Shown in pieces: positions 16,503 to 60,749 of a stretch of DNA of 64,000 bases (its first letter is position 1; each line of letters starts with the position of its first letter). Location: IMG/VR virus record IMGVR_UViG_3300025162_000043, positions 14,055 through 78,054 of that record. The stretch is one strand, 5' to 3'. The position numbers and the translations under genes were made by a program. Source of the stretch: a virus. The notes beneath the pieces were generated by a model. That model saw only the letters and a program-made list of their open reading frames with translations. It was not told the origin of the DNA and did not search any database.

Positions 16503-16552
16503 ATCAACAACCCCTACCCTAAAGGGACAGGGGCTTCCTTGCTCCCAAGGAT
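16503..16552 (-). mobile_element. IS200/IS605-family hybrid LE/RE hairpin scar
   Basis: minus strand TTCAC|atccttggGAGCAAGGAAGCCCCTGTCCCTTTAGGGTAGGGGTTGTTGAT; starts like the tnpB element left end and finishes like its right end. Confidence 0.75.
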
Positions 16553-16559
16553 GTGAAAT

Positions 16560-16959
16560 TGGTGGACCTGCCGAAGATCTGCCCTTCGGGTCTCTATAAT
16601 AGAAAACTTACAATACTACAAGTTTAGTTCGTTGGTGATTTCTGCCGTTTACTTACGAACACCTGAGCGGCATATCCATACACTGGTATGTCAGCAGTAA
16701 TATGATTGGAACCATATCAAGTTTCACCCGCTATAGAGCCGTGGATTTTGTAGCGAGTATCCTTATCCACGTCCGAATTATGCCAAAGCCAACTCGAAAA
16801 CTGACTCCTCAACATCGTTAAGCGACATCTCAAAATCAATTTCTGCAATCTTATTTAAGCGATTGTCATCTGTCTTCGGTCAGATTTTATGCTGTCCATC
16901 CGACCAACCAGCACTTGCATTATAAGCCATCAATCATAGATCGAATCTATTACAGGCCC
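16560..16959 (-). ncRNA. ssrA: tmRNA
   Basis: 5' GGGCCUG...AUUCGA and 3' CAGGUCC-ACCA form an acceptor stem with G3:U; T-arm CCGAAG-GGCAGAU-CUUCGG; internal tag frame ending FELALA-stop (16867-16778). Confidence 0.92.
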
Positions 16960-17006
16960 ATTTCAATAAATATACCAGACCCCATCAAAGGTGTCAAGTT
17001 TTTTCG

Positions 17007-17074
17007 GTCAACAACCCCTAGGTCGGAATTCCTCCCCAAGGCTAAAGCCGTTGGGGCTTCCTTCCTCCAAGTAA
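17007..17074 (-). mobile_element. IS200/IS605-family minimal LE+RE scar inside a gene 3' end
   Basis: TTCAC|ttacttgGAGGAAGGAAGCCCCAACGGCTTTAGCCTTGGGGAGGAATTCCGAC-CTAGGGGTTGTTGAC. Confidence 0.8.
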
Positions 17075-17505
17075 GTGAAAATCCCCTTCTCCTCAGAATA
17101 CATAACATCTTTGATAACTATCTTGTCAACTTTAACCTCTGACCCATTCTCAAAATATACATCCCCCTTAATAGTAAACTGAGTTTCGTGAATACTGTCA
17201 ATATCCCCCTCCTTTACCACAAGCCTTATGGCTAATGTATCATCACTCCTAAATGCCAGACTTAATACATCAACTTTAATGTGATCAAAATACATGCTCA
17301 CACAAGGACGCTTATCTAACTTCTGATTGAACTCTTCCACGGCCTCACGTAATATATAAGGATGAAACTCGTATTGCTTAAATACAGGCGGAGTCACAAT
17401 AGGATGATAATAATTAATCCCCCGATCCATTATCACACTCTCAGAATCAAATCTCATAGCAATGAATAAAAGACAAATGCAATATAATGCATATGAAATA
17501 AACAC
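17008..17505 (-). CDS. hypothetical protein (C-terminus supplied by the IS scar)
   Basis: 165-aa ORF with N-terminal hydrophobic stretch. Confidence 0.65.
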   Translation of the reverse strand: MFISYALYCICLLFIAMRFDSESVIMDRGINYYHPIVTPPVFKQYEFHPYILREAVEEFNQKLDKRPCVSMYFDHIKVDVLSLAFRSDDTLAIRLVVKEGDIDSIHETQFTIKGDVYFENGSEVKVDKIVIKDVMYSEEKGIFTYLEEGSPNGFSLGEEFRPRGC

Positions 17506-17508
17506 AAA

Positions 17509-17772
17509 TTATTGGCCATATTCAGGATTAATAAGTAGTTCATGAGATTTCTTTCTCCGTTCTTTATTCAACCGACGTTTCTTCTCTTGTAGTTTTTCTG
17601 CATCAGTCATCTCATTAATCCAATTATCAACTTCTTTGCGAAGCCCCCTTAATGTACGATTGCGCCGACGCATATCCCTGGAAAGAATTCGACTGCTCTC
17701 TATAAAACTCTCAGTAATAAGATCTTGAATCTCCGCTAATAACTTGATTCGACTCTTTTGAAATTGATGCAT
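17509..17772 (-). CDS. hypothetical basic helical protein
   Basis: ORF track 17509-17796; likely ATG 17772. Confidence 0.6.
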   Translation of the reverse strand: MHQFQKSRIKLLAEIQDLITESFIESSRILSRDMRRRNRTLRGLRKEVDNWINEMTDAEKLQEKKRRLNKERRKKSHELLINPEYGQ

Positions 17773-17848
17773 ATTCGATAATATATAGACGTTCACAATT
17801 CTAAAAATAGGAAGTTGACAAATATTTCAGATGTGCTATGTTGCACCC

Positions 17849-18118
17849 ATGAATACATCTTGGCCCGAAACCATTGACAAAGACAAATCTTGGCCCGAAA
17901 CCATTGCTAAAGAAAAAGAAAAAATAAAAATAACCTTCCGACTTATATGTGCATCCAAAGTAAAGAAGTTTGCCCTGGAATTTGCAAAAAATCAAATCCG
18001 TACCAAAAATCATACCCGCGTAAGTGAAGAATTCCTCATCTCTTGCGAAATAGCACTCAAGAATTATATCATCTCCCGAGTAAAAATGCAACCCACAAAA
18101 GGAAAAACTTTGACGTAA
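17849..18118 (+). CDS. putative histone-fold (bacterial/phage histone-like) protein
   Basis: LICASKVKKFA...TRVSEEFL...LKNYI...KGKTL parallels the bacterial histone pattern (LVV.SKVK...S.E....L...RKTV); TTGACA/TGCTATGT promoter directly upstream. Confidence 0.6.
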   Translation: MNTSWPETIDKDKSWPETIAKEKEKIKITFRLICASKVKKFALEFAKNQIRTKNHTRVSEEFLISCEIALKNYIISRVKMQPTKGKTLT

Positions 18119-18142
18119 TACTTATAACAAGGTAATATTACA

Positions 18143-18328
18143 ATGAATAACTATAACAAGAACGAAGAGGAAATTATAACCCAATGCCTAATGGTCTCTT
18201 CTTGCTGTGGTGCTGCCCCATTAGGATGCTTGGAAGAAAATATATGCGGACATATGATCGGAATATGTTCGGAATGTCACCAAGAAACTAACTTCGAGAA
18301 AGATACGGAAGATGAAAATAGTCGCTAA
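18143..18328 (+). CDS. small Cys-rich (Zn-binding) phage protein
   Basis: SSCCGA...GICSECH. Confidence 0.65.
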   Translation: MNNYNKNEEEIITQCLMVSSCCGAAPLGCLEENICGHMIGICSECHQETNFEKDTEDENSR

Positions 18329-18575
18329 ATATATCGGAAAAGTAAACGAATTCAACCAACCCCCAGCCCTATCCTATGTCACATTGAAAAATGTAGACAC
18401 CAATGAGGAAATTAATACACATGCCCTATCCCAAATGCTCCTGGATGCAGGAGTCGATTACGTGAAATGTGAATTCGAAGTCCTCGTCATGGAAAATGAT
18501 GAGGGAAAACATAAAGCAATAACTAAAGAATTAAAATCCCATAATAATACCCCAACTGATAATTTTGATATTTGA
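18312..18575 (+). CDS. hypothetical protein
   Basis: 87-aa ORF overlapping the upstream gene. Confidence 0.65.
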   Translation: MKIVAKYIGKVNEFNQPPALSYVTLKNVDTNEEINTHALSQMLLDAGVDYVKCEFEVLVMENDEGKHKAITKELKSHNNTPTDNFDI

Positions 18576-18578
18576 TAT

Positions 18579-19910
18579 GTCAACTACTCCTAGCCTAAAG
18601 GCATAGGGGCTTGTAATACTTCCTTACTAGCAGAAGATTTACATACAATTGGCGAATTGACTGTCGCCTGCCCATAAGTCAGATTCGAGGTCTGTGATAC
18701 GGGAAGTTTGGATAATTTTGCTATATTTATACTAGCATTGATATCCGCATCATAAACAAGACCGTTTTTAGAATAAAACCTACAACCATGTCTTTCACCT
18801 TCAATCTTACCGCTTACGCAGTCAGTTTGAGAAGTATAAGATGGGCGAACGAAAGTTATGGTTTTACCCATATTCTCTGCCTTATATGTTATTATTCTAC
18901 GGAGTTCAAACATCGGTACTTGACTAATGTTTCTCTTATTTTGATATCTATTTTTCTTTTTCTTTATTCCTTTGAGATTTTCTAATACAATGGTGTCGGC
19001 ATTAGTTTTTAATACTTCATTGGCAATTAAATGAGTTTGATTTTTATTTTGGTTATGCTCTTTATGACGCAGTTTGTTAAGATGTTTTTTGGATGATTTA
19101 TTACTTTTAGATTTAAGACAATCTTTTAAATGTCTTAACTTACGTTTATTACCATTAAATTTTTTATCAATAATTAATCTACCATCTGATGTGGCGGCAC
19201 TACGTCTAATTCCTATATCAACCCCCAATGCTAATTTCTGGTTTAACATTTCTTTTGGTTTATTTTCAAAACAAAAAGAAATAAACAATTTTCCATTATT
19301 TTCGTAAATAAGCGGATCTTTATATTGATATTTATCCAATAGTTTCTTAAGTTGTGGATAAACAACAAATTTAAAAGACTGTCGTTTGTTATTAGTGGTA
19401 ATTCGGATGGAATATTTATCTTTTTTATCTTGAGAATAAAGTCGTTTATCAAGACGCATTGATAAATTCTTCTTAATAATTGGAAATTTTAATTTGTGTT
19501 TATTAGATTTTGTGGATTTGTAACTGGAAAGACACTCCTGTTCCGCTTTAATAATTACTTGAGATGGAATGTTTGAATATTGTTTTCGAATATTATTATA
19601 AACTTTAGAATGGAGAATTATCAGCGAATTCTTTTTTTCAGTAAATTGAAGTTGGGAAGCGAAGTTAAATACTATTTTATGCATATCAAGAATTGATTTC
19701 AGCGAATCAAAATCTTCTTCATTTTTCATTAAAAGTTGAGTATTATAACTTAGCACACTAATATATATCATTGAAATTATCAAAACATCAAATTATTTCA
19801 AAATAAATGATTTTTCTTTTGTTGACATTTGGAAAGGATGTGTTAACATTAAGAATGGTCGCAATTCCTCCGCTACCCTAAAGGGATAGCGGTTTCCTTG
19901 CTCCAAAAAT
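18579..19910 (-). mobile_element. tnpB-only IS200/IS605-family (IS1341-like) element
   Basis: LE hairpin ~19858-19904; RE hairpin 18579-18613 ending GTAGTTGAC; preceded by TTCAT; removing it joins the stop at 18575 + TAT to ATG 19911. Confidence 0.85.
18590..19783 (-). CDS. tnpB: TnpB RNA-guided endonuclease (Zn-finger-less variant)
   Basis: RuvC motifs LGVDIG / IVLENL / DADINAS all intact; YTSQ present but no CxxC pairs; C-terminal QAP overlaps the RE. Confidence 0.92.
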   Translation of the reverse strand: MIISMIYISVLSYNTQLLMKNEEDFDSLKSILDMHKIVFNFASQLQFTEKKNSLIILHSKVYNNIRKQYSNIPSQVIIKAEQECLSSYKSTKSNKHKLKFPIIKKNLSMRLDKRLYSQDKKDKYSIRITTNNKRQSFKFVVYPQLKKLLDKYQYKDPLIYENNGKLFISFCFENKPKEMLNQKLALGVDIGIRRSAATSDGRLIIDKKFNGNKRKLRHLKDCLKSKSNKSSKKHLNKLRHKEHNQNKNQTHLIANEVLKTNADTIVLENLKGIKKKKNRYQNKRNISQVPMFELRRIITYKAENMGKTITFVRPSYTSQTDCVSGKIEGERHGCRFYSKNGLVYDADINASINIAKLSKLPVSQTSNLTYGQATVNSPIVCKSSASKEVLQAPMPLG

Positions 19911-20144
19911 ATGAATATGCCGTTCAAATCACCCCAAGAAGCTATCGATGCCTGTGAAGCCGAATCCCTACGAGCCTGGCAAGAATACCTCGTAACTAAT
20001 AAACTCGACCCCGAGAAATCTCCCAAAGCCTGCGCAGCCGCTCATCGTGTGTTCCACGCAGGTTATATCGCAGGCGCTAAATGGGTCAGCGGTGCCATCA
20101 TCGAAAAAATGATGGCAAATGACAATCCAAACTTAATATGGTAA
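19911..20144 (+). CDS. hypothetical protein
   Basis: 77-aa ORF starting at the element boundary. Confidence 0.65.
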   Translation: MNMPFKSPQEAIDACEAESLRAWQEYLVTNKLDPEKSPKACAAAHRVFHAGYIAGAKWVSGAIIEKMMANDNPNLIW

Positions 20145-20330
20145 CTGCCCACTCGGTGATGGCCTCATCCGCCGACCACTGTTCATTAACCAATCATCCA
20201 CCTCAACCGTGTGCTCTCGATAATATTGCCACCCCAAAGGATTAACCGGATCCTTCTTCCCACTCTCGCAAATCAAAAATGACGGCACATTCTCCAAATA
20301 TACAACCTTACCTTTTAATTCTTTTTTCAT
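20133..20330 (-). CDS. hypothetical protein
   Basis: 65-aa ORF overlapping the upstream gene. Confidence 0.5.
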   Translation of the reverse strand: MKKELKGKVVYLENVPSFLICESGKKDPVNPLGWQYYREHTVEVDDWLMNSGRRMRPSPSGQLPY

Positions 20331-20760
20331 ATTTTTTTACCTTCTTGGGCCTCTTTACCCATGTCACCTTCGCAGGTTCTAAATCATACATAACAAAATA
20401 TCCGCAAATAGTTCCATATTCTTCACTCCGATCATCCCCGTTGTCATATAATATCCCCCCGTTAAAAGCAATCGCCGCGTGCCCAAACCTATCGTCAACC
20501 ATCGAAAGACTAACAATACTGTAACCCTCTGGCCCAATCGGACCGTTTAATCGTAACCCCCCAGTCTCCATAAACGCACGAGCAGGAATATATACCAACC
20601 CCCTCCGAAAATTCTTCTTCAACCATACCCGAGTCATGTTCATATACTTCTCCCCATATAACTTCACAAACTTCGGAACCCGCTCAGGCTCTATCTCCAA
20701 TAAACATGCCAAACAATCCGACCAACATGTGTTCTCTGTGTTAGTTATATACTTTTTCAT
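20308..20760 (-). CDS. hypothetical protein, possible papain/C39-like Cys peptidase
   Basis: CWSDCLACLL...VPKF...GHAAIAFNGGILYD (Cys-His-Asp spacing). Confidence 0.55.
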   Translation of the reverse strand: MKKYITNTENTCWSDCLACLLEIEPERVPKFVKLYGEKYMNMTRVWLKKNFRRGLVYIPARAFMETGGLRLNGPIGPEGYSIVSLSMVDDRFGHAAIAFNGGILYDNGDDRSEEYGTICGYFVMYDLEPAKVTWVKRPKKVKKYEKRIKR

Positions 20761-20927
20761 ATCCCACTACATTACCATACCCAATTCCAAAAAGCAAGCT
20801 ATAAAATTTGTTTTCCAGGATTTTTTTGAAACACCTATACCTCTACTACAAATTCTATGCCTATAAAATACGCATATGCATGAATACGTATATGTAGCTA
20901 TTAAAAGTAGTATCCATATGTTAAACA

Positions 20928-21010
20928 GGTAGGGGGGGCGATTGGGAGGGGTGTTTTCAGGCCTGTTCAGACACACACCCCCGGGGGAGCCGGGGGGGAG
21001 TCTGGGGGAC
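20928..21010 (+). other. G-run tract at a compositional boundary (candidate terminus/packaging site or origin; G-quadruplex potential)
   Basis: six runs of 3-7 G within ~80 bp in an AT-rich genome, plus a CCCCCGGGGG palindrome. Confidence 0.5.
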
Positions 21011-21012
21011 TA

Positions 21013-21495
21013 TTAGGTTTTCTTAACTAAGTACCATTTAGATCGGGGAATATTGCTTTCCCGATCAATGTCTTCGTCTGGCGTCAAGTCGATTTTTCCG
21101 ATAGTTCCATCTTGTGTCCCGTACGTGGACAAACAATTCCGTACCGATTGCGGCCGGTATCTTGTCGTACCATTGGCAAACCTTACGCCGACCATGTCAA
21201 TCACTTCGGTCGTGAATAGACTGACGCCGATTGCCACTGGCCGAATTTCAGTCTTCTCAATACCTCTTGGCAATTCGGCATTGGCCATTCTAAGAATGTC
21301 CCGGACTAACTCCATGATGCCAATTACAGATGATTGCTTGCTCTTGCCAAGCTTGGCATAATGCGCTTGGAAGTGTGGCCGGACACCGGCAATGGTCAGC
21401 GTATTGTTGATCGCTTTGCAATTGTCAAGAATTTCAGAGGACATGGCTATAGCCGCCTCTTGATCCGCGTTCACTGATTCAATTTTATTTTGCAT
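21013..21495 (-). CDS. hypothetical early protein
   Basis: ATG 21495 follows a TTGACA promoter; the longer ORF-track start runs through the repeat. Confidence 0.7.
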   Translation of the reverse strand: MQNKIESVNADQEAAIAMSSEILDNCKAINNTLTIAGVRPHFQAHYAKLGKSKQSSVIGIMELVRDILRMANAELPRGIEKTEIRPVAIGVSLFTTEVIDMVGVRFANGTTRYRPQSVRNCLSTYGTQDGTIGKIDLTPDEDIDRESNIPRSKWYLVKKT

Positions 21496-21664
21496 ACTTG
21501 CCACTAAGATCGCACAACCAAGCTCAATTGTCAAAAAGTATTTGAAACTACTTTTTGCGCCAGCGAGGGAGGGAAGAAATACTGGCCAGTAAATGATTCG
21601 GTGAAACGAGGGCAAAAAAAGAAATACTGGCCAGTAAATGGTTCGGTGAAACGAGGGCAGGAAA

Positions 21665-21691
21665 AGGCTCCCGGGAGCAATTCCCGGGAGC
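21665..21691 (-). terminator. intrinsic terminator (example of the hairpin present in each intergenic unit)
   Basis: GCTCCCGGGA..TCCCGGGAGC followed by CTTTT on the minus strand; similar at ~22355, 23769, 25187, 26651, 27172, 28726. Confidence 0.75.
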
Positions 21692-21707
21692 GTGAGATTA
21701 GGAATCG

Positions 21708-22082
21708 TTATGCTTCGTTGGGATCGCTAGGCCATCCCTGAATTGCATTGGCCGGGAGCAGCCAAGTGCAATTGCCCTGCCCCGGACCGCTAACATAGGT
21801 TCGGAGCGTGCGCCCAAAGTAGGTCACGCGGTTGGCAGACCCATCTGCCGGCTTATAGCTGATGGTGCAGACCATCTTGACCTGCGCCTTGCCATCGGCA
21901 ATGGCTTTGTTCAACCGGCTAACGGTCACGCTTCGGGTCTTGCCGACCTGCACGCCAACGGCAACGGCAACCGCGTCAAGTTCCTCCGTGGACATAGACG
22001 CAATAAGGACGGATGCGGCAGCAGGCTTGCTGGTTTCAGGGGCAGCGGCAATGATGTTTTCGGCAGTATTTTCAGTATTCAT
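21708..22082 (-). CDS. hypothetical early protein
   Basis: 124-aa ORF, GC-rich relative to the window. Confidence 0.75.
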   Translation of the reverse strand: MNTENTAENIIAAAPETSKPAAASVLIASMSTEELDAVAVAVGVQVGKTRSVTVSRLNKAIADGKAQVKMVCTISYKPADGSANRVTYFGRTLRTYVSGPGQGNCTWLLPANAIQGWPSDPNEA

Positions 22083-22397
22083 TTGATTGTCTTTCCAACA
22101 CAGTATTTTTCGAGACTTGGCGGGCTTACGTATCCCGCTCTCAACATATAGACCATAACACAGGTTCTCTGTTTGTCAAAAAGTATTTGAAACTATTTTT
22201 GATCGCTATCGTCCGAGCTGAGGTTCTCCGGCATGGGGGAAGAAATACTGGCCAGTAAATATTCAAAGAAATACTGGCCAGTAATTCTTGCCATGCACAG
22301 TAAATGATTCGGTGAGCACAGTATTTAATTCGGTGAGATTTGGGCAGGGAAAAGGCCCCGGATGTCTGCCTCCGGGGATGAGTGATGATGCTTTCCG

Positions 22398-22649
22398 TTA
22401 TTTATCAGCGTGCAACGCGATTGAACACCTGACATGGTGCAAATCGCTTTGATGGGTATATGTCGCGCCATCAATTGACCATGCATACCGGCATCCTTCG
22501 TAGCTACCATCGAAACCCCAATAGGTGCCAACTTCTATCACGGTACAGGTTACTGCTACACTTATCAGTTTTGATCGCCGACCGTTGCCAGTCCGGTGGT
22601 GAACTAAATTTCTAAACTTCATTCCCAGAACAATGGGTGTATCATTCAT
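22398..22649 (-). CDS. hypothetical early protein
   Basis: ORF downstream of TTGACA...TATGAT promoter. Confidence 0.6.
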   Translation of the reverse strand: MNDTPIVLGMKFRNLVHHRTGNGRRSKLISVAVTCTVIEVGTYWGFDGSYEGCRYAWSIDGATYTHQSDLHHVRCSIALHADK

Positions 22650-22906
22650 GTCCATATCATACATCATCCAGGTAATTTGTCAAAAAATATTTACAACTAC
22701 TTTTGATCGCCAACCCGGCTTCCCTGCCTTGACCGAAGAAATACTGGCCAGTAAATATTCTTATATCGCCTAATGTATTTAGAAATACTGGCCAGTAATT
22801 CTTGCGGAGCACAGTATTTAATTCGGTGAAATTTGGGCAGGAAAAAGCGAAGGACCGTACCATTTCTGGCACGATCCTTGCTCGTGTTGTGTTCTCGAAT
22901 GGCCAA

Positions 22907-23509
22907 CTAATCGGCTAAAATGGATTCGACTTCGGCCATTTCTGGCATTTCAACTACTACGCCAGATGCTCTTAGATAATAGACGTTTTTGAGATTGACG
23001 GCAATCACGGAGGGCTTAAAGTCTGGTTTTTCAGTTTCCTTGTAAAGCCAGGGAGCAACCACTTCATCAAACTCTGGTTCATTGGCTTCATTACAATAGG
23101 CACGTGTGGACTTATGCGGGAAGTATTGGAGATAGTATTGACCATCACGCTTGGCTTCGTCCTTGTGTTGGACCAACGGAAGATTTTTGCCGTCTATGGT
23201 CTTAAGGTGTTCATACCATGTTTCGCCGTTCTGGTACTCAACTTGGGACAATTCGACGCCAAGCTTAGCAGCAATCCGAGTGCAAACGCTAGTATTATAG
23301 TTAGCGTTGACAATGCCAATCTTCCGGGATACCTTATACAAGCCATTTTTGGACTTGGCAGATGCTCCCCAGGGGTTTCCTGCCTTGATCTTGACCACTG
23401 GCGTTTTGCTAAGGATAGCGACAAACCGGCAAGCTGTTCCATTGGTCTTGATAAAACCGAGCATCTCTAACACGGATACCATTTGAACCACATTTTTCTT
23501 GTCTAACAT
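22907..23509 (-). CDS. hypothetical phage protein
   Basis: 200-aa ORF with own promoter and terminator. Confidence 0.8.
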   Translation of the reverse strand: MLDKKNVVQMVSVLEMLGFIKTNGTACRFVAILSKTPVVKIKAGNPWGASAKSKNGLYKVSRKIGIVNANYNTSVCTRIAAKLGVELSQVEYQNGETWYEHLKTIDGKNLPLVQHKDEAKRDGQYYLQYFPHKSTRAYCNEANEPEFDEVVAPWLYKETEKPDFKPSVIAVNLKNVYYLRASGVVVEMPEMAEVESILAD

Positions 23510-23808
23510 ATTTTTACTTTCGAGTTAACACTAGAGAGCGTGTTGCTCTCTTACACCAACACCATACCACAGGTTCTCTGTTTGTCAAAAAGTATTTGAA
23601 ACTATTTTTGATCGCTATCGTCCGAGCTGAGGTTCCCCGGCATGGGGAAGAAATACTGGCCAGTAATTCTTAATTATATTATTCCACGGGTATTATATTA
23701 AGAAATGTTTACTGGCCAGTAATTCTTACGATGCACAGTAAATGATTCGGTGAGAAGTACAAAAAAAAGGCCCGAGGTTTATACCCCGGGCGTGATCGAC
23801 CAGATAAT

Positions 23809-24846
23809 TTATGCGGTAGTATTCGCCAATAGCTGTTTGCCTAAGTCAACACAACCGTTGAATGATTCGTCATCATCATCCCTAGTAACCAATCGCCAAA
23901 AATCGGCTTTAGATTGCTGCCCCGAACCGTATTCGGAGGAAAGGAATTGACGCATTGGATTGGTGTCTTTGCCACTAGAGTAATGCGTATAGTAATCAGT
24001 CACCGCTGAAAATGCGTCGGCACGAGTACTACCGCCATTCCCCTTGCCAGACTCATAAAGGTTTACAAGTTGCAATATAGTATTGTTTGCCCGAGTGGAA
24101 AGACCTTTTTCCACGGTCTTTGCATCGGTTATTCTACGCCCGAGGAAGCCAGCAAAGAGATTTGTAGCGACTGGACTAGACAACGGCACTTGGCTTAGTT
24201 TTTGAAATTCAAGTTGAAATTCAGCTTGAACGCCAATTGCCTTATCGATCAATTTCGCCATCTCTGGCAACCGCATGATTGCGTTTTTTGTGTGGCGCTG
24301 GCGGATACGAATATCATCGGAATTATCGGAATGTTTATTTTCCACGCTAAACAGATTGGAAGAAAATGTATTGTCGCAAACCGTGCATGTATTACTAGTA
24401 TTGACCCACAACACCGAGGATTTATCGTGTCCGTTGCCGAAATTGAGGTAGGCGGAGAATGAACGACCGCCAGCGACAAATGCTTCCATACCATTTAGCT
24501 TAGTGGAAACAAAGACCCTGCCCCTGTTGCGGACACTTCCCACGGAAACAATTTCATGCGAAGTTCCGGCGATACTAGCCCTGACCAGTTCAAGGAAGGA
24601 TTTGTTGTCAACCGGCTTGAAAGTTTCGGGGTTGTAGGGTTGCCCTATTTCAACGTCGGGAATGTCAGAGCATTCAAGGACTGCCCATTTCGATGGTTTC
24701 CCACGTTTTTCCAGGAGAATGGGTTGCACATCCCATTCTGTTAGCCAATTATCTTCTAACGTGATAACTGGCTTGATCTTAGTAAGACCGTGCCATGCCT
24801 GTTGAATACCTTGCTGTTGATCGTTCTGTTCTATTCTATGAGCCAT
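23809..24846 (-). CDS. DUF932/DUF945-family phage protein
   Basis: AWHGL...GSVRNRGRVFV...NGHDKS...TVCDNT...RHT...AFSAVTDY. Confidence 0.8.
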   Translation of the reverse strand: MAHRIEQNDQQQGIQQAWHGLTKIKPVITLEDNWLTEWDVQPILLEKRGKPSKWAVLECSDIPDVEIGQPYNPETFKPVDNKSFLELVRASIAGTSHEIVSVGSVRNRGRVFVSTKLNGMEAFVAGGRSFSAYLNFGNGHDKSSVLWVNTSNTCTVCDNTFSSNLFSVENKHSDNSDDIRIRQRHTKNAIMRLPEMAKLIDKAIGVQAEFQLEFQKLSQVPLSSPVATNLFAGFLGRRITDAKTVEKGLSTRANNTILQLVNLYESGKGNGGSTRADAFSAVTDYYTHYSSGKDTNPMRQFLSSEYGSGQQSKADFWRLVTRDDDDESFNGCVDLGKQLLANTTA

Positions 24847-25246
24847 ATTTTGATTCTTTCAATTTAATTGTTTTTTACTCTAACAATTACACACTACATC
24901 TAAACAGGAAAAAGTCAAATTGTTTTTGATTTATTTTGGATTTATTTGATGCACTAAAAAGAATTTAAGCACCGACGGCAGAGAGCGGCGGAGGCCGAAG
25001 AAATACTGGCCAGTATTTCTTATACTATATTTCAATAGTATTCCGCCCGTTATTATATTAAGAATTTGAAGAAATACTGGCCAGTAAATATTCAAAGAAA
25101 TACTGGCCAGTAATTCTTACGATGCACAGTAAATGATTCGGTGAGAATAGTATTTAATTCGGTGAGCGAAGGATGAAAAACAAAAATGCCTCTGGTTCCG
25201 ACCAGAGGCACCTATACAATATGAATATAGAACCGCCAAAGAAATC

Positions 25247-25960
25247 TTACATTTTCACAGTCTCTTGTTCTCCAACATGGAGGACTTCTGTTTTATATTC
25301 TTCTGATTGACTGCAATAACCACCTTCATAATGCCCATAGTAAACATTCTGAGGATCAAAGATTGTTCCGAGTTTTACTTTTTTGCATTCACATGCATAA
25401 AGATTGCCCCGAGGAGTACAGAACAATCCACCACAGCAACCAGCTTTTTGACTGCGATTGCCCCAGTTTTTAGCCCTGCCCATTGCTTGAACATAAGTTA
25501 TTTCGCCATTTATGTCCCTGCAATCGTATTCATTCTGAAAGTTAGACGCATATAAATCTTTTTTAGGGCGTTGAAATGCTTTGCGTACTTTATCAGTAAC
25601 CATACTTTTATCATGGTATTGATCTTGAGATAAACGACACCCAATAACTCCGCGCTCTGCCAAGTGTGCAAGCGTAAGAGAAACATTCTCATTGGTGCCG
25701 TTAGTTACCATAAACACAGCAGGAGACCCCAGACTATTGGATTGGGATGCTAATTCCCATACAGCATACATAAGGAATTCCTGAAAAAGTGGATGCAAAG
25801 TAGGTTCTCCGCCTCCAATAGTAATTGAACAATCCTGATCGGAGACAAGTTTAATTGCCGCGTGGAAAGTTTCCCTGCTCATATCGGTTCCCTTGGCAGT
25901 GCAAGCAAAACAGCAGTGACTGCAAGTCATATTACATTTTGTCGAAATCTGTATATACAT
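25247..25960 (-). CDS. radical SAM protein
   Basis: CNMTCSHCCFAC (CxxxCxxC), GGGEPTLHP, TNG, Cys-rich C-terminus. Confidence 0.9.
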   Translation of the reverse strand: MYIQISTKCNMTCSHCCFACTAKGTDMSRETFHAAIKLVSDQDCSITIGGGEPTLHPLFQEFLMYAVWELASQSNSLGSPAVFMVTNGTNENVSLTLAHLAERGVIGCRLSQDQYHDKSMVTDKVRKAFQRPKKDLYASNFQNEYDCRDINGEITYVQAMGRAKNWGNRSQKAGCCGGLFCTPRGNLYACECKKVKLGTIFDPQNVYYGHYEGGYCSQSEEYKTEVLHVGEQETVKM

Positions 25961-25996
25961 ATATCGTCTCCTACATTAACACAGTCTATCCTGTTG

Positions 25997-26419
25997 TCAA
26001 ATGGTTATTCCTGAAAGTTTGTTCACGATTGAATGCTCTGCACAGACAGGGAATTCCAATCCGTTTGTTTCCCGTCCTTCTGCTTGTTCCAGGAGGTTCC
26101 GCAAGTGAGCATCATTTGACACACAAGAATAAGACAGCGTAGAATACAATGACCCTGGCTTAGGTGGAGCGTATGGAGTCCAACCGTCCAAATAGCTTTG
26201 CATCCATTCTGGCAATTTATCACATTGATTCCAATCTTCATTGCACTTTGTTTTGAATTCCGCATTGGCAATATCCCAGAGACGATCAAGGATTTGATCG
26301 TTTGGCATGAATTCAAACTTATTCAAGTATGCTTGTGCAAGCTCGTCTATTTGATTAGTTCGGAATAAAATTGCGGCGAAGTAATTCATTAACGGTTGTG
26401 ATTCAATTTTTTGTTTCAT
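25997..26419 (-). CDS. hypothetical protein
   Basis: 140-aa ORF with upstream TTGACA promoter. Confidence 0.7.
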   Translation of the reverse strand: MKQKIESQPLMNYFAAILFRTNQIDELAQAYLNKFEFMPNDQILDRLWDIANAEFKTKCNEDWNQCDKLPEWMQSYLDGWTPYAPPKPGSLYSTLSYSCVSNDAHLRNLLEQAEGRETNGLEFPVCAEHSIVNKLSGITI

Positions 26420-26742
26420 ATTGTATTAACACCTTACACCATAAGCATATAAATGTCAAACGGAATTTTCAAATATCTTTTAGGCACCGCCGACGAAGAT
26501 CATACGAAGAAATACTGGACATTATTTCTTGGTGGAACCGTGAGCATCCTATGAACATCCTGTGAGCATCCTATGAGCATAGCAGAATAATTACTGGACA
26601 TTATTTCTTGTCTGAGCACAGTAAATGATTCGGTGAGAAGTACAGAAAAAAGCCCCAGCATTGAATGCTAGGGCCACATGGATTATTTATATTGTATATT
26701 AGTATTTCATATTATTTTATTGTGTTATAGTTTAGTCATTCG

Positions 26743-26988
26743 TCAGAGAAGAGGCGAGAAATTCTCGTGATATTCAGCTATGCAAAAAGATGTCATATCA
26801 TTCAACTTTGCATATCCTCGTTCATCAAGATCAAGGGCACCGCTGAAAAGTGATTGAAACTTGTCAAGAGCAGTTTTAAAGTCACATGGAGCAGATTCGG
26901 CTAAAACTTTGTTGGCTCCATATTCTAACCGAATTAAAGCATATCGTTTCATACTGTTGTAAACTCTATCATTGTTCCCGTATGTCAT
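26743..26988 (-). CDS. hypothetical protein
   Basis: 81-aa ORF with own promoter. Confidence 0.65.
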   Translation of the reverse strand: MTYGNNDRVYNSMKRYALIRLEYGANKVLAESAPCDFKTALDKFQSLFSGALDLDERGYAKLNDMTSFCIAEYHENFSPLL

Positions 26989-27216
26989 ATCTATTACACC
27001 ATAACATACTCCTGTAAAATGTCAAAAAGTTTCTTCAAATATCTTTTATACACCACCGACGAAGATCAGGCGAAGAAATACTGGCCAGTAATTCTATATC
27101 ATAGATATACATTTACTGGATATTATTTCTTGCCAGGCACAGTAAATGATTCGGTGAGAAGTACAAAAAAAGCCCCCAGCTTAAAGAAGCTAGGGGCTTC
27201 GCTCACTACAAACCAA

Positions 27217-27915
27217 TCATTGGCGCATTACTTTTTCGCTAAACAGTTTTTCGGCCAATGTATATTCATCAGGAGCAAGGTCCGCGACATGCAACAACTC
27301 ATCCCAATTGCGGGCTAAATCATTTTCCGAACCGAGAAAATGGTTATATCCGCTATTACCTTTAACTTGTGCGAGAACAAAGCCATCACCTGTTACCACC
27401 AAGCTATTAACTTGCGGAGTAACCCATTCTTGCCCGAGAATATAAGCAACAATGCTACCCATCTTTGGGGTCATAAGCCTAAAGCCTTTGGGATTAAGTT
27501 TTTCCACAAGTGTAAATATTGAAGCGGGAAGATTCCAAATTTCTCGATATTCATGCAGGACAATTTTCTGACAATCTTTGGGCAATTCAGAAAAAGGAAT
27601 GCGCGTGCCAAGATAATTTTTGCGACCAATAGCAGGAGCAAATCCTGCCTTATTCACGTCAACTTGACGCTTGCTTTCACTACGTTCAAAAGTACCTTTA
27701 GAATCAAACGGATTCTCCGACATGTAAATCCATAGGAATCCAGTAGGACCAGTTTTCGTACAACACTGCCGATTCGGGATTGAACGATATTTGCCCGAGT
27801 AAATAACAACATATCGCTCATCAGAACCTAAACAACAATTGTCATAAACTCGAATGTATCTTGGAATGCCTTTAGGCATTAGTGACCAAACTCTATTTGC
27901 AGTTTTTTTATTCAT
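27217..27915 (-). CDS. hypothetical phage protein
   Basis: 232-aa ORF with own promoter and terminator. Confidence 0.75.
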   Translation of the reverse strand: MNKKTANRVWSLMPKGIPRYIRVYDNCCLGSDERYVVIYSGKYRSIPNRQCCTKTGPTGFLWIYMSENPFDSKGTFERSESKRQVDVNKAGFAPAIGRKNYLGTRIPFSELPKDCQKIVLHEYREIWNLPASIFTLVEKLNPKGFRLMTPKMGSIVAYILGQEWVTPQVNSLVVTGDGFVLAQVKGNSGYNHFLGSENDLARNWDELLHVADLAPDEYTLAEKLFSEKVMRQ

Positions 27916-27953
27916 AGTAATACCTTACACCTATTTATATTTTTGTCAACCGA

Positions 27954-28244
27954 TTAGTTAAAGAATCTTGCGCTAGTAACTAGCTGCCGAACAAGACATT
28001 TGGCATCCCGTCTGCTACTTGCCCGAACAAAGACCTGAACTGGTTCAAATTCAGACCAAGCACAATACATGTTGGTTTCTGGAGTGTATCCCCAATACGC
28101 CCCGCTTTTATCATAATCTAAATCAATCCATTTAAGTTTTTCCATGTGCAATTTAATAGGGGCATTAACATCTTGAGGCAAACGAGTTAACCTGCCCATA
28201 CTTGCGCCGAACATATTACATGCTTTAGGAAGAATTAGTTTCAT
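27954..28244 (-). CDS. hypothetical phage protein (YDxxGAYWG motif)
   Basis: 96-aa ORF, GASMGR...YDKSGAYWG. Confidence 0.7.
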   Translation of the reverse strand: MKLILPKACNMFGASMGRLTRLPQDVNAPIKLHMEKLKWIDLDYDKSGAYWGYTPETNMYCAWSEFEPVQVFVRASSRRDAKCLVRQLVTSARFFN

Positions 28245-28281
28245 ATTATTACCTTAGCATAGTTATTGAAATTGTCAAATA

Positions 28282-28551
28282 TTATCTACAATCTTTTTTA
28301 TATTGTTTACGCCATTCTACCGGGGAAAGTGTCTGAGTGGTATGTGGGCGAAATTCTAATTCACCATCTTCCCGCGAGCCAATATAACCATGTTCTGTTT
28401 TAGTGGTTGCGGGAATACTGAAATAAGTGTCGGGGATAGTTGCTTTGCATCTTACTAGTTTACCAGTAACGGAATGAAAAACGATTGCTTGACGAGTGAA
28501 CATGCCATAATCCCGACATTGTTCCTCAGATCCAATTGAAGTTATATTCAT
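28282..28551 (-). CDS. hypothetical protein
   Basis: 89-aa ORF with own promoter. Confidence 0.65.
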   Translation of the reverse strand: MNITSIGSEEQCRDYGMFTRQAIVFHSVTGKLVRCKATIPDTYFSIPATTKTEHGYIGSREDGELEFRPHTTQTLSPVEWRKQYKKDCR

Positions 28552-28975
28552 GCTTCACACTATACCATAAAATACAAATGTCAAAAACTTTCGTCAAATA
28601 TCTTTTGGACACCGCCAGCCATACGAAGAAATACTGGCCAGTATTTCTTTATCATAATATAAGAAATACTGGACATTATTTATTGCCAGACACAGTAAAT
28701 GATTCGGTGAGAAGTACAAAAAAAAGCCCCCGGGAGTGAGAATCCCGGGGTATAGCGCCTGGCCAGCGTTATTTAATGGTTAGATGCTGAAATATATTGT
28801 GGCATAAGAGGCCTAAGCATTTACAGTTTATTCTGCTGTTCTATCGGCTACTCTCTATTAGAACCATTCGATGCCACGAAATGTTATTTGCTATCAGTTA
28901 TTTCGTATTTTTCAATGTCCAATGTTTCAATGTTTACTTCGTCATAAATCTAATTGTTATCAAACGGAATTCATC

Positions 28976-29167
28976 TTAAGAAAACAGGTCATAACTCATT
29001 GGCAAGGATTGAACCGCTTCTGAGGCATGTTTCCTGGCACAAATAAAGCCAATGCAAAAAGAACGGGCTTGTTTATAGTCATCAAAGGTGTATATATCTT
29101 TTGCAAGTACACCAGATTGAACTTCAACTGTAATATGATCTTCGTGGTTAGTGATAATTAGTTTCAT
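28976..29167 (-). CDS. hypothetical protein
   Basis: 63-aa ORF. Confidence 0.6.
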   Translation of the reverse strand: MKLIITNHEDHITVEVQSGVLAKDIYTFDDYKQARSFCIGFICARKHASEAVQSLPMSYDLFS

Positions 29168-29172
29168 ATAAG

Positions 29173-29421
29173 TTAATGGCTTTTACTTAAATCATCTGTC
29201 TTATCGGGAATAGCATCCCACAAAGTATCTGCTTTACTCTTAGCTTCTTCCATAGCAGTTTTGTATTCCCGCTCCATTGTTGGTGTGAGCCAAGACATGT
29301 ACCAGCTAAGGGTTGCTTGATAGATGTCCCTGTAGTTTTTTGCCGCTTTGAGATATTCGCGGTGCGCGTCATTGAAGCAAACAACCGTACCCCAGTTCCC
29401 GAGATAAACTTCAGTTTTCAT
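29173..29421 (-). CDS. hypothetical protein
   Basis: 82-aa ORF with TTGACA/TGCTAATGT promoter. Confidence 0.65.
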   Translation of the reverse strand: MKTEVYLGNWGTVVCFNDAHREYLKAAKNYRDIYQATLSWYMSWLTPTMEREYKTAMEEAKSKADTLWDAIPDKTDDLSKSH

Positions 29422-52343: not shown

Positions 52344-52358
52344 TGATATTTATAGTGC

Positions 52359-53956: not shown

Positions 53957-53960
53957 ATGT

Positions 53961-54515
53961 CTAATATAAAGGATGTATCCAACTCTGGGAAATCATATTT
54001 TGGCTTACTACCATCGAAGTAACCCCGCCTGCTGTTTGTAGCCCAGCGATATAGTAATTTCCATCGGAAATATTTTGGAGAATCAGGTTCGGTTTTGAAA
54101 TATCAAATATTGCGCCATAGCTATTAGTAATGAATGCTTTTCCATATGCTGATTGGCTTACGGTGAGAGTAACAGTTGGTGCTGTACCATTGAGATAAAC
54201 GGCATAAGCATTGCCGTCAGTTGATGCTATGAGTTGATACGGATAATTTTGTTCAAAGAAGGATGGAGCCATTGTATAAGAGGCAGTGTATTCATTCTGG
54301 GTATAGGATGGACCAGAAGTAAAGCCAAGAGCAGATTGACTCACATACACATCTACAGCCCCTGCAGAGCCACTACTTGTTACCATATACCATTTTGCAT
54401 CATCGGCTGACTTCATAACGAGTTGGCCTATGGCAAAGCCAGCACCAACTCCATCATCAGTTGGACAGTTCACCAAATATGTTTTTCCTTTAGATTTTAT
54501 AAATCGTTGTTGCAT
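53961..54515 (-). CDS. hypothetical, possibly structural, protein with three internal beta-repeats
   Basis: L.S.D..Y.V...G....VSQS x3; CTATTTATA motif upstream. Confidence 0.7.
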   Translation of the reverse strand: MQQRFIKSKGKTYLVNCPTDDGVGAGFAIGQLVMKSADDAKWYMVTSSGSAGAVDVYVSQSALGFTSGPSYTQNEYTASYTMAPSFFEQNYPYQLIASTDGNAYAVYLNGTAPTVTLTVSQSAYGKAFITNSYGAIFDISKPNLILQNISDGNYYIAGLQTAGGVTSMVVSQNMISQSWIHPLY

Positions 54516-54708
54516 GAATATAAATAGTTTATTACTGGTCCTTTAAGTATAATCATAAAAGACAATAAAATTAGTGACTATTGCGCTCTCTATCTTTCTT
54601 CTTCAATAACTCTATTTCTTTCTCAAGCGTTTCTATCTTTCTGTAATGCCCCATACATCGCCACTTGGCGACTTAATCATTATAACTTAATATTCAGGAT
54701 TAATGCGG

Positions 54709-57515: not shown

Positions 57516-57559
57516 ACAAGCAATGTAGCACATATGGGAGATTTGTCAAATGGAATGTG

Positions 57560-58651
57560 TCATTTCTTTAACACCTGCCAGAAAATTTTCTTCACTTGAT
57601 CGTCTGACAACGGTTTGCTGTCCAGTCTTGTGAAAACCATTGCGCTTCTACTGCTTATAGAATATGACGCCAATACCTTCTCTGCCTGTGCTTTACGAGT
57701 TGGCAAAAGACGAAGAGTATTTTCTACAAAATTATCAATTCCATCTACAATCTGTCGGACTTGTTTGGCGGCATCACATATATTACTCGCAAATCCTCTC
57801 ACCATATTCCAACATTCATAGTCAAACTGCGATTGTAGTTGTTTCTCAAACTCTTGGTAAGATGGTTTCCCATATTCGAAAAATAACTCCAATGTATTTT
57901 CAAGCGTGGCATTCTCTTTGAATCTATGAAGTCGCAAATAAGTATTTGCTTTTATTTTATGAATTTCGCGAGAATTATTAGAATAAAGACAAATACCTTC
58001 TTTCGTTGTCCATTTTGATATCTCGTCCAACAATTCTTCGGTGGAATTAAACGAAAATGATTCTGGTCGTTTTATCCCAAGGTCTTTTCCTAATCTATCC
58101 AAGTCAGGTTGATGCATTAAGGAATAGTCATTTTTATTTACAACACCGACAAGCCAAAATTGAGGTTCAGAACCATAATCAATTACTATTTTTAAATTTG
58201 GAGTAGTTATTTCTGCAAGTAGGGTACAATGAGAATTTACAGTTAACCATTCTTTAATCTTGGGAGATTTAAATAAGCAATATTCAAAATCGGAGGCGTT
58301 ATCAATGGTGGAGTAAGAAAACGTTCCTCGTGTTCTCATGCATAATTGTCCATTGACATAATCGAGGCAAACAAGTGAACCATCAATTTTTTCGACAAAA
58401 GAACAATTATCAATAGATAATGGAATTGGAAAATTTTCGGGGTTTTCTCCGAAATTTACAAATTTGAAAAATCCTCCACTCAAAAGTTCTCCCGTATCTG
58501 CCACCCATATACTTGAGCGAAATATCTTATTCTTTTGTGTAAACTTAGTTCCGATGTGGATTGGGGTTATTAATTTGGACGCCATACCGCCGAAGACTCC
58601 TTCTTTGAGTACGAAATCGGTAAAGTCGTAATCTGCGAAATTTATTTTCAT
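57560..58651 (-). CDS. RNA ligase (T4 Rnl1-like nucleotidyltransferase)
   Basis: FFKFVNFGE, EKIDGSL (motif I), EGIC, KIK. Confidence 0.85.
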   Translation of the reverse strand: MKINFADYDFTDFVLKEGVFGGMASKLITPIHIGTKFTQKNKIFRSSIWVADTGELLSGGFFKFVNFGENPENFPIPLSIDNCSFVEKIDGSLVCLDYVNGQLCMRTRGTFSYSTIDNASDFEYCLFKSPKIKEWLTVNSHCTLLAEITTPNLKIVIDYGSEPQFWLVGVVNKNDYSLMHQPDLDRLGKDLGIKRPESFSFNSTEELLDEISKWTTKEGICLYSNNSREIHKIKANTYLRLHRFKENATLENTLELFFEYGKPSYQEFEKQLQSQFDYECWNMVRGFASNICDAAKQVRQIVDGIDNFVENTLRLLPTRKAQAEKVLASYSISSRSAMVFTRLDSKPLSDDQVKKIFWQVLKK

Positions 58652-58681
58652 ACCATCAACATAGCACAGACATATAAAATG

Positions 58682-59092
58682 TCAAATGGAAAGTTGGAAT
58701 TTTTGAAACCGATCATTTTTCTGGTTGTTACAGCAGTGACAAAGTACTTGGAAATTGGTTGGGTCTCTCCACGCTCCTCCGGCAGCAATTTCAATTTTAT
58801 GATCCATCACCGCTTGCATATTGCCATCCGTTGTCCAAGGTTGAAGTCCTTGGCGTTTGCATTGGGCACAGGTAAGCCCATTCTTCTCGTCCATATGTTC
58901 TTTCATTTGTATTTTCATCCATTTATTACGGAGAAAATGCATACGGGTTTCTGTGTAAATACTCTTATCGGCAGCAAAATATTTTCTAGCTAAGAGACAC
59001 AGGTGAGCAGCAGAATTAATGGGAGGGTCTTTAATATGGACAACTTGAGTTGCCCAACTTTTAATCTCTCGGCTTTTAGAGCGAGTCATCAT
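58682..59092 (-). CDS. HNH endonuclease
   Basis: CAQC...DHKIEIAAGG..DPTNFQVLCHCCNNQK. Confidence 0.8.
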   Translation of the reverse strand: MMTRSKSREIKSWATQVVHIKDPPINSAAHLCLLARKYFAADKSIYTETRMHFLRNKWMKIQMKEHMDEKNGLTCAQCKRQGLQPWTTDGNMQAVMDHKIEIAAGGAWRDPTNFQVLCHCCNNQKNDRFQKFQLSI

Positions 59093-59175
59093 GCTATTTG
59101 TGAAGCATAATATTACCACCATTCGGGAAAAAGTCAAATAAAAAAGTAACTTTTTTCGCTTGGCGTGATATTTAT

Positions 59176-59458
59176 TTTGGTCGTCGCAGAAAACTCCTTG
59201 GTCTTCAGCCAAGGAGATGAATGCGACCCACAAATATAATTAGTTGACTTCTTCTGTGTCATAATATATATTGGTAATATGATTGAATAAGAGACGATAA
59301 TCAAGTCTCACAACACAATCAAAAAATAATTTTCTGGACATTCCCGCTGATTTAAGTCATCATGTTAATTTTAACTGGGGATACCCACAATCCGAAATCT
59401 GGGACGAATAACATTCAAATTAATACCCCCCGAGGCTAAAATCTCGGGGGTTTTTCAC
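59176..59458 (+). mobile_element. probable second gene-less IS200/IS605 derivative
   Basis: LE-like hairpin GTCGCAGAAAACTCCTTGGTCTTCAGCCAAGGAGATGAATGCGAC; RE-like hairpin CCCCGAGGCTAAAATCTCGGGG..TTCAC. Confidence 0.5.
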
Positions 59459-59476
59459 TGTTTTCGAAATCTTCGT

Positions 59477-60007
59477 TCATATTTCTTGCGCCAGTTTCTT
59501 CAATGTTGCATTTACCGTATCATCCAGCGTATTATAAATCGGGCACCATTTATCATTATCCATGCGTAATCCTTTTCGCTTGGAATCCTCTACCCACATG
59601 ATGTCTAAATACGTAATTCTATAAGCATTATCAGGTCGGCCATAGATCACCTTGCTTCGGTCACGAGCCATCCAATATCCTAATTCATGGTTCGTTGTAA
59701 GTCCAATTAATTCTCGGGTTCTTGGAATCCAGAACATAATGACATGAGACATACGCAAACAAGTGTATTCCCATATAGGAATATCGTAACGATACTTATC
59801 CGATTCAGTTTTATCGGTGAATTCGGGAATAATAAGATTGCCTTCAAACCCTTTGCTGGCGAATAGTCTAATTGCCTCAAATCGCCAAGAAGTTAAATGT
59901 GGTTGATTTCCTCTGACTGTCGGCCCCGCCAAGAACAGGGATGGTTTTGTAAAATCAATATCCGCAATTGGCGTTTCATATCTAATTTCTTTCAGTGGTG
60001 TTTTCAT
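59477..60007 (-). CDS. nucleoside 2-deoxyribosyltransferase-like protein
   Basis: LFLAGP...SWR...IPE...WEY...IMFWIP...TTNHELG. Confidence 0.82.
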   Translation of the reverse strand: MKTPLKEIRYETPIADIDFTKPSLFLAGPTVRGNQPHLTSWRFEAIRLFASKGFEGNLIIPEFTDKTESDKYRYDIPIWEYTCLRMSHVIMFWIPRTRELIGLTTNHELGYWMARDRSKVIYGRPDNAYRITYLDIMWVEDSKRKGLRMDNDKWCPIYNTLDDTVNATLKKLAQEI

Positions 60008-60010
60008 ATT

Positions 60011-60277
60011 TTATGTATGTGGATTAAATCCGCGTTTATTAATGTAACCAGCAGGACCATGCCCTACTCGTTGAACCATTTCACAGCGGTTACCGCCAAC
60101 GGTAGCAGACTTCTTACGCCATATCTCGGCACCATCCTCGGCAGGAACAATAGAGTGCCATCCCTTTACAGAAGGAAGTCGGGCATCCCGATAGTTCTCA
60201 CATTTGGAGAGTTTATCAGTCATTATACAATGCATTCTGTCTTTAGCCCTGCCATACATCAGATTAAAAAGTTTCAT
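60011..60277 (-). CDS. hypothetical protein
   Basis: 88-aa ORF. Confidence 0.6.
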   Translation of the reverse strand: MKLFNLMYGRAKDRMHCIMTDKLSKCENYRDARLPSVKGWHSIVPAEDGAEIWRKKSATVGGNRCEMVQRVGHGPAGYINKRGFNPHT

Positions 60278-60456
60278 GATTTCTTGCCTTTTTGTTTTGG
60301 GGTTGGTTTACCGTAATCACAATTGGGACAGATGCACCGAGGTTCACCACTTGGGACTAACCACGTAAGAATAGTCCAATGCGACTGAGTTATGTCTTTC
60401 GCATCGGCGAAAATACTTTTCTTTCCACAAATATTACATATTACAGTCCAGCGCAT
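60274..60456 (-). CDS. small Zn-ribbon protein
   Basis: CNICGK...CICPNC. Confidence 0.6.
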   Translation of the reverse strand: MRWTVICNICGKKSIFADAKDITQSHWTILTWLVPSGEPRCICPNCDYGKPTPKQKGKKS

Positions 60457-60681
60457 ATATCTACAATATAACATACTCCTTACCATTGTCAAACTGAATT
60501 TTGCGAAATCCATTTGACAGATGGGATAGTTTCGAGTATATTGGAACCATGAAGAAATTCTTGAAGTGGATAGGCGAATGGTTATTTATCATTTTTGTCC
60601 TCATCCCACTTCTTGTGGTGTCCTTATGTCTGTGGAAAAAAGAAATGGAAGACCATGATCGATCTAAATAAAGTTCGCAGT

Positions 60682-60749
60682 GTCAACAACCCCTAGCCTA
60701 AAGGCGTAGGGACCCTGAAGGGATAGGGGTTTCCGCAACGATAGAAAAT
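60682..60749 (-). mobile_element. IS200/IS605-family hybrid LE/RE scar
   Basis: TTCAT|attttctatCGTTGCGGAAACCCCTATCCCTTCAGGGT-CCCTACGCCTTTAGGCTAGGGGTTGTTGAC. Confidence 0.8.

Follow-up and report, generated by a model that had tools for sequence, protein, structure and literature searches.

Why do mobile elements in the densely packed genome of a phage come to rest, again and again, directly in front of start codons? This question is raised by a stretch of viral DNA of 64,000 nucleotides (hereafter the window, whose numbering is used for all element coordinates), which corresponds to positions 14055-78054 of the 78,054-bp IMG/VR virus record IMGVR_UViG_3300025162_000043. An earlier note on this DNA had described six insertions sharing a TTCAY target, four of them abutting start codons. 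Our analysis identified these insertions, together with a seventh copy elsewhere in the record, as members of the IS200/IS605 family of transposons, and specifically of its tnpB-only, non-autonomous (IS1341-type) subgroup; they are a clear and recently mobile case of a known transposon family, not a new kind of system. In all probability, their distribution reflects repeated invasion by TTCAT-targeting elements of this type, with the survivors being those insertions that were spared by selection against gene breakage. The source of the window is a large freshwater phage: near-identical DNA is present in freshwater and lake metagenomes collected between 2016 and 2020 in several studies, and the CheckV completeness estimate of 22% for the 78-kb record implies a phage of several hundred kb.

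The boundaries and flanks of each element were extracted and read on the element's own strand. All six elements were found where the earlier note had placed them, with left ends abutting TTCAT (n = 4) or TTCAC (n = 2) and right ends finishing in GTTGAC or GTTGAT. Since TTCAT and TTCAC together account for about 0.35% of the positions on each strand (324 and 168 sites, respectively, over both strands of 70.9 kb, that is, the record after removal of the elements and of one copy of its terminal repeat), six such flanks out of six are far beyond chance. Four of these elements abut the ATG of real-looking open reading frames (ORFs) of 61-77 codons, and TTCAT is there the antisense of an ATGAA start. 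The full-length element of the set, E3 (18579-19910, minus strand; 1,332 bp), is preceded by TTCAT at 19911-19915 (minus strand), the antisense of the start of ORF 19911-20144 (plus strand, 77 aa). E4 (30808-30858, minus strand; 51 bp), a solo-hairpin relic, separates the stop codon (TAA) of 30413-30805 from the ATG of 30859-31065, its TTCAT flank (30859-30863, minus strand) being the antisense of the start of this latter ORF (68 aa). E5 (32698-33093, plus strand; 396 bp) is gene-less and retains both ends along with about 100 nt of guide-RNA scaffold; its TTCAT flank (32693-32697, plus strand) is the antisense of the start of ORF 32512-32697 (minus strand, 61 aa), and it lengthens the upstream gene, which would otherwise end ...GVKI*, to an 84-aa product. 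E6 (60682-60749, minus strand; 68 bp) has its TTCAT flank at 60750-60754 (minus strand), the antisense of the start of ORF 60750-60965 (plus strand, 71 aa), and lies within the inverted terminal repeat of the record, so that it is present twice.

The two TTCAC-flanked elements are located elsewhere than at start codons. E1 (16503-16552, minus strand; 50 bp) is a solo-hairpin relic that combines a left-end 5' arm and a right-end tail (...GTTGAT) with a single hybrid hairpin; its flank, the target and candidate transposon-adjacent motif (TAM), is TTCAC at 16553-16557 (minus strand), and the element starts 7 nt past the 3' CCA of a transfer-messenger RNA (tmRNA) gene, with no protein gene adjoining. 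In E2 (17007-17074, minus strand; 68 bp), a left-end hairpin, AGGAATTCCGACC, is combined with the 14 nt that close a right end. This element sits in the final codons of gene 17008-17505 (minus strand), where the TTCAC flank (17075-17079, minus strand) comes from the conserved I-F-T codons ATT TTC ACn, and the protein thereby loses its C-terminus ...IFTEKT* in exchange for a tail of 22 residues that the element encodes. Finally, when the elements were compared with the entire record by blastn, E7 came to light at record positions 8396-8791, outside the window (396 bp, 98% identical to E5), with a TTCAT flank, an adjoining antisense ATG and a reconstructed empty site in which stop and start overlap as ATGA. 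Re-reading of the window sites gave the same clean junctions as the earlier note had reconstructed, namely TGA-tat-ATG at E3, TAA-ct-ATG at E4, an ATGA overlap at E5 and ...IFTEKT* at E2.

Further evidence that these are true insertions comes from alleles that lack them: public assemblies contain the exact protein ends that the earlier note had predicted for the empty sites of E2 (...IFTEKT) and E5 (...GVKI). At the E2 site, the filled form is P0141 (149 aa) and the empty form is P0121 (131 aa), which is identical through ...GIFT and then continues with EKT and a stop. At the E5 site, the filled form is P0142 (84 aa) and the empty forms are P0145 and P0147 (70 aa), ending ...KGVKI. At the E7 site, where the filled form is P0150 (118 aa), we predicted an empty allele of 104 aa ending ...CNGTGRL before the look-up, and P0152 matched this prediction. 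The protein ends at all three sites fit a simple join of the flanks, with neither a duplication nor a scar, and the empty DNA junctions predicted on the element strand (the slash marking the join) would read ...TTCAC/CGAAAA..., ...TTCAT/ATTTTTACACC... and ...TTCAT/AATCTTCC..., with no extra bases. Apart from these ends, the filled and empty proteins show few or no differences, so that the insertions, or else precise excisions, are recent. A composite element spanning E2 to E1 was also considered and rejected, since the empty E2 allele joins straight to E2's own right flank.

The association with the motif extends beyond this record. A TTCAY flank, which the earlier note had proposed as the insertion target, is present at seven of seven elements in the record, and among 12 related full-length TnpB elements from IMG/VR contigs (56-84% protein identity), 10 have TTCAT immediately in front of the left end. 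In addition, a scan of all viral contigs with two left-end patterns yielded 28 distinct left-end contexts, many of them on contigs of 300-370 kb, and every one carried the flank (27 TTCAT, 1 TTCAC); contig ends from lake runs contained further element copies flanked by TTCAT or TTCAC. As deduced from these flanks, the insertion motif is TTCAT, with T the rule at the fifth position and C a tolerated minority variant. In the IS200/IS605 family, the target of the transposase coincides with the TAM, and for another member, ISGst5, the measured TAM is TTCAT and the transposon-end motif is TTCAC (bioRxiv 10.1101/2023.03.14.532601). Because family target and TAM coincide, TTCAT is also the predicted TAM of the TnpB encoded by E3. 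The start of the left end itself varies in more distant relatives (AATG..., TGTAG... or AAAACAG...). Among other phage records, one (G001, loci L020-L022) harbors two full TnpB copies of this clade and another (G004, L027-L035) has at least two left ends and a right end finishing in TTCAC.

The defining features of the family that were examined are all present in these elements except for a transposase in cis, which places them in the recognized tnpB-only, non-autonomous subgroup. The tnpB gene of E3 (18590-19729, minus strand) encodes a protein of 379 aa from its ATG, or 397 aa from an upstream TTG at 19783, that matches the Pfam domain Cas12f1-like_TNB (PF07282; 47.6 bits, cut-off 26.3) and scores 21.7 bits against PF01385, under the cut-off of 30.5. 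Its similarity to solved TnpB proteins reaches only about 27-33 bits; the motifs GVDIGI, VLENL and DADINA align with the D, E and D catalytic positions of the RuvC domain in solved TnpB-type structures, and the gene looks intact as far as can be judged from its sequence. The 3' region of E3 contains a putative guide-RNA (omegaRNA) scaffold and the right-end hairpin (18579-18710, minus strand), where conservation stops exactly at GTTGAC. When the last ~130 nt of E3 were aligned with six related elements, 15 of 31 predicted pairs displayed compensatory changes. This conserved region, which matched no Rfam family, is the predicted guide-RNA scaffold expected of such an element. E5 and E7, which have parent-type ends and the motif at two unrelated sites, encode no protein and keep the 3' ~100 nt of the scaffold, including the covarying stem.

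Both ends of the elements bear subterminal imperfect hairpins with a G+C-rich stem and a CTTTAG-type loop, and neither end is an inverted copy of the other. Immediately 5' of its left hairpin every element has a conserved GGAA[A/G], and immediately 5' of its right hairpin a conserved CAAG (e.g., window 19885-19893 and 18612-18618). Within these, GAA complements the TTC of TTCAT and CAA complements the TTG of TTGAC, as one would expect if they were the family's internal guide sequences, which would specify the two cleavage sites. The small units can be traced to the same ends. E1 and E4 consist of the left-end 5' arm, one hairpin and an 8-nt right-end tail, and E2 and E6 retain slightly more. 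Considering that the left and right hairpins of the full element are nearly identical, that the stems of the 49-51-bp elements here and in L051, L056 and L063 are left/right hybrids, and that 49-50-bp units of the same build recur in three other phage contigs, the units of 50-68 bp are best read as products of crossover between the left- and right-end hairpins. Moreover, at least three sequence types can be distinguished among the left ends, matching different related elements, which indicates that the phage lineage was invaded more than once.

To what extent, then, do these elements prefer start codons? We performed a census of the same 70.9 kb using a crude gene model (142 genes, 92% coding). 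Of the 324 TTCAT sites, 257 lie within genes, 38 coincide with start codons, 19 belong to spacers and 10 fall among the last six codons of a gene. ATGAA starts are found in 38 of the 142 genes (27%), and start codons make up 38 of the 67 non-disruptive TTCAT sites (57%). A random pick among all TTCAT sites would fall on start-like sites in 15-20% of cases, so that five out of five would have a probability of about 3e-4. In other phages, 14 of 25 determinable insertions (56%) lie on starts of ORFs of at least 50 codons, with the rest in spacers or at gene ends. This share is close to the 57% expected from gene-sparing alone, and no extra preference for start codons is therefore required; TTCAT targeting combined with the loss of gene-breaking insertions fits the start-codon pattern. 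The proposal of the earlier note that Met-Lys and Met-Asn starts act as safe-haven sites is thus upheld as a survivorship effect, while any preference beyond that is unnecessary. Neither the family nor its motif and mechanism are new; in the papers searched, we found no description of start-codon docking as an outcome of the TTCAT motif.

The genes behind the docked starts would probably lose little. Upstream of 75 confident starts of this phage we detected no G-rich Shine-Dalgarno signal; their leaders are A-rich from -11 to -2, have T at -1 in 61% of cases and give the consensus AAAAT-ATG-A. The antisense of the left-end terminus reads AAAAT (E4, E6) or AAAAAT (E3, E5, E7), so it matches the native leader consensus and preserves the immediate start context. 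The earlier note had suggested that the left end supplies a new AAAAT leader that may alter translation: the leader is indeed supplied, but a large change in translation is not predicted, since AAAAT is the native consensus at -5 to -1. At the filled sites, neither the leader scores nor the predicted opening energies fall outside the native range, with the exception of the opening energy of E4. We infer that docking would be cheap in a phage that initiates without Shine-Dalgarno pairing. Two further possibilities were discarded. A replacement Shine-Dalgarno sequence brought in by the left end was rejected because AAGGA at -11 to -7 is carried only by E5 and E7 and the phage shows no use of such sequences, and read-through coupling across E3 was excluded by the 23-32 stops per frame on the reverse strand.

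Several points limit this picture of repeated invasion and survivorship or weigh against it. The empty alleles are confirmed as proteins only, at E2, E5 and E7, and E1, E3, E4 and E6 lie outside the set of confirmed empty sites. Among Logan contigs from four lake runs covering window positions 16000-35999, none skipped an element exactly, although these contigs break at repeats and are uninformative on allele frequencies. The exact empty-junction patterns found no match for E3 in metagenome contigs or for E5 in viral contigs. The assignment of TTCAT as the cleavage TAM of the E3 TnpB is a well-founded expectation from the family rule, and the zinc-finger region of this protein retains just two cysteines in the alignment. 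No Y1 transposase (PF01797) was detected in this record or in four related phage records (~450 kb in all; records incomplete, 16-72%), with positive controls matching as they should. For the filled leader of E4, an unusual degree of structure is predicted (an opening energy of 15.6 kcal/mol, versus a native 95th percentile of 12.8), and the census itself depends on the crude gene model.

Taking these points into account, we propose the following scenario, which builds on sequence comparison and family precedent. At least three sub-lineages of tnpB-only IS200/IS605 (IS1341-type) elements would have entered the phage in repeated invasions, each integrating as a single strand directly 3' of TTCAT, occasionally TTCAC, with no target duplication and with a right end of TTGAC or TTGAT. 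An element landing at an ATGAA start would sit backwards just before the start codon and leave the reading frames unbroken. In a genome that is 92% coding, selection would purge gene-breaking insertions, leaving those that lie at a start codon, within the final codons of a gene, like E2, or in a spacer, like E1 behind the tmRNA gene. The A-rich AAAAT leader contributed by the left end would keep the start context at little cost in translation. The E3 TnpB and its guide RNA may cut empty alleles (TTCAT plus the right-flank sequence) in co-infecting genomes, with the insertion then being copied back, and new insertions would need a Y1 transposase, presumably coming from the host or from the portion of the phage genome that is missing from the record.

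One alternative is that docking is adaptive, meaning that TTCAT and the A/T-rich left-end terminus were selected for harmless entry at ATGAA starts and that docking exceeds the gene-sparing expectation. All five TTCAT-flanked insertions in the record are indeed at starts (p ~0.06 if 57% of harmless sites are starts) and the left-end terminus, read in antisense, gives the AAAAT consensus of native leaders, but the 56% share in other phages (14/25) is indistinguishable from the 57% expected under survivorship, ISGst5 uses TTCAT in a bacterial chromosome too, and the left-end starts of more distant relatives are variable; we therefore regard an adaptive origin as improbable. A related proposal goes further, namely that this is a phage-adapted clade whose left-end terminus was shaped to mimic the Shine-Dalgarno-free leader of its carriers, making ATGAA docking near-neutral, and which persists and spreads by TnpB/guide-RNA homing among co-infecting large phages with no transposase of its own. 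We consider this unlikely.

Another possibility concerns the route of spread: the dissemination of the elements and their presence/absence polymorphism could be due mainly to TnpB/guide-RNA homing, or to ordinary recombination, between co-infecting phages, with TnpA action rare and in the past. The lack of a Y1 transposase in ~450 kb of element-carrying phage sequence, the intact-looking tnpB with its conserved guide scaffold, and the coexistence of filled and empty alleles in near-identical phage backgrounds would all agree with such a route. However, the 98% identity of E5 and E7 at two unrelated sites calls for transposition, E1, E2, E4 and E6 have no guide scaffold and yet E2 is polymorphic, and all the records searched are incomplete (16-72%), so that we view this route as a possible but doubtful main cause. 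It could also be argued that the units of 50-68 bp belong to the phage itself, as regulatory hairpins acting, for instance, as terminators or RNA-stabilizing stem-loops, given that they are G+C-rich hairpins between genes and that E1, right after the tmRNA gene, fits a terminator-like pattern, resembling a weak terminator. Their 5' arms and 3' tails nevertheless match the ends of TnpB elements base for base, with shared TTCAY and GTTGAY borders; their stems are left/right hybrids; and an otherwise identical allele lacks exactly E2. A native origin is thus hardly credible, and repeated invasion followed by selection against gene breakage remains our preferred explanation.

The window has a G+C content of about 38%; blastn of 8 kb of it against deposited phage genomes gave no match, and a DNA search of 20 kb against four related phage records returned the TnpB element as the sole match. 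None of the small genes flanking the elements matched a PHROG family, no relatives were found in viral or metagenome contigs for the flanking proteins 30413-30805, 19911-20144, 17075-17457 and 33094-33302 and for alignment A1, and a TnpB search of genome contigs yielded a single 2.6-kb contig labelled as an archaeal metagenome-assembled genome, which offers no clue to the host. The stretch without ORFs between E1 and E2 is filled by the full-length tmRNA gene (16560-16959, minus strand), a full-length match to Rfam RF00023 (48.9 bits, gathering threshold 47) with the acceptor stem GGGCCUG/CAGGUCC plus ACCA, which was missed by ARAGORN and by a whole-window Rfam run with default filters. A promoter-like sigma-70-type site close to the consensus (TTGACA-17-TATATT, 11 of 12 matches, with a TG extension; 16969-16997, minus strand) is placed to drive this gene, and the end of E2 lies 9 nt upstream of it.

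Further away, the record carries a perfect inverted terminal repeat of 4,836 bp (window 59165-64000 and record positions 1-4836), which may represent either a genuine terminus of the phage or a fold-back that arose in assembly, and whose inner boundaries coincide with no element. A tRNA-like 3' half (minus strand), ...GGTGGCACCGAAGGGATTCGAACCC..., is found at record positions ~4870-4920, outside the window and just within the left repeat boundary. At record position ~5736 (minus strand; outside the window, window coordinate ~-8318) there is a right-end-like hairpin, GGAAACACCTACGTCTTTAGCGTAGGGGTAGTTCAT, that ends in TTCAT, not TTGAC, and may be a stranded or rearranged transposon end. A single ORF of 4,242 codons (3051-15779, minus strand) takes up one fifth of the window. 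In addition, a nucleoside 2-deoxyribosyltransferase-like gene (59477-60007, minus strand; slightly under the Pfam cut-off) and a nicotinate phosphoribosyltransferase gene (61685-62857, minus strand) look like phage functions for nucleotide and nicotinamide adenine dinucleotide (NAD) salvage.

The main value of this case lies in seven insertions within 78 kb accompanied by documented filled and empty alleles. It is a natural example in which the 5-nt target of a transposon explains where survival is possible in a densely packed phage genome. As both alleles of three sites are available in public lake metagenomes, RNA-guided homing between phages is testable on real alleles, as is the cost of an insertion right before a start codon. 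In addition, E3 offers a compact TnpB candidate (379 aa) for which TTCAT is the predicted TAM.

Among known systems, the closest is ISGst5 of Geobacillus stearothermophilus (Meers et al. 2023, bioRxiv 10.1101/2023.03.14.532601), in which TTCAT likewise abuts the left end, serving as TAM in ISGst5 and presumably here, and in which the end motif is likewise a near-copy of the target (TTCAC in ISGst5; TTGAC or TTGAT here). Both have subterminal hairpins, no target duplication and a guide RNA at the right end, but ISGst5 encodes IscB and resides in a bacterial chromosome with a TnpA, whereas the elements described here encode TnpB, are carried by a phage and have no TnpA that we could find in the record. 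ISDra2 and IS1341-type tnpB-only elements (Karvelis et al. 2021, PMC8612924; PDB 8exa, 8h1j) share the RuvC D/E/D residues of TnpB, a guide RNA that overlaps the 3' end of tnpB and reaches the right end, and a TTNAT-type pentamer motif (the TAM of ISDra2 being TTGAT, here TTCAT), although the zinc-finger cysteines are partly missing here. E5 and E7 resemble palindrome-associated transposable elements (PATEs) and other gene-less IS200/IS605 derivatives, which are short non-coding units with family ends and motif in several copies; unlike PATEs, four of the units described here are cut down to a single hybrid hairpin of 50-68 bp. Finally, the elements recall the free-standing homing endonuclease genes of T4-like phages, which are also selfish nuclease genes lodged between phage genes, with filled and empty alleles among relatives, except that recognition here would be guided by RNA together with a TAM and that transposon ends are present.

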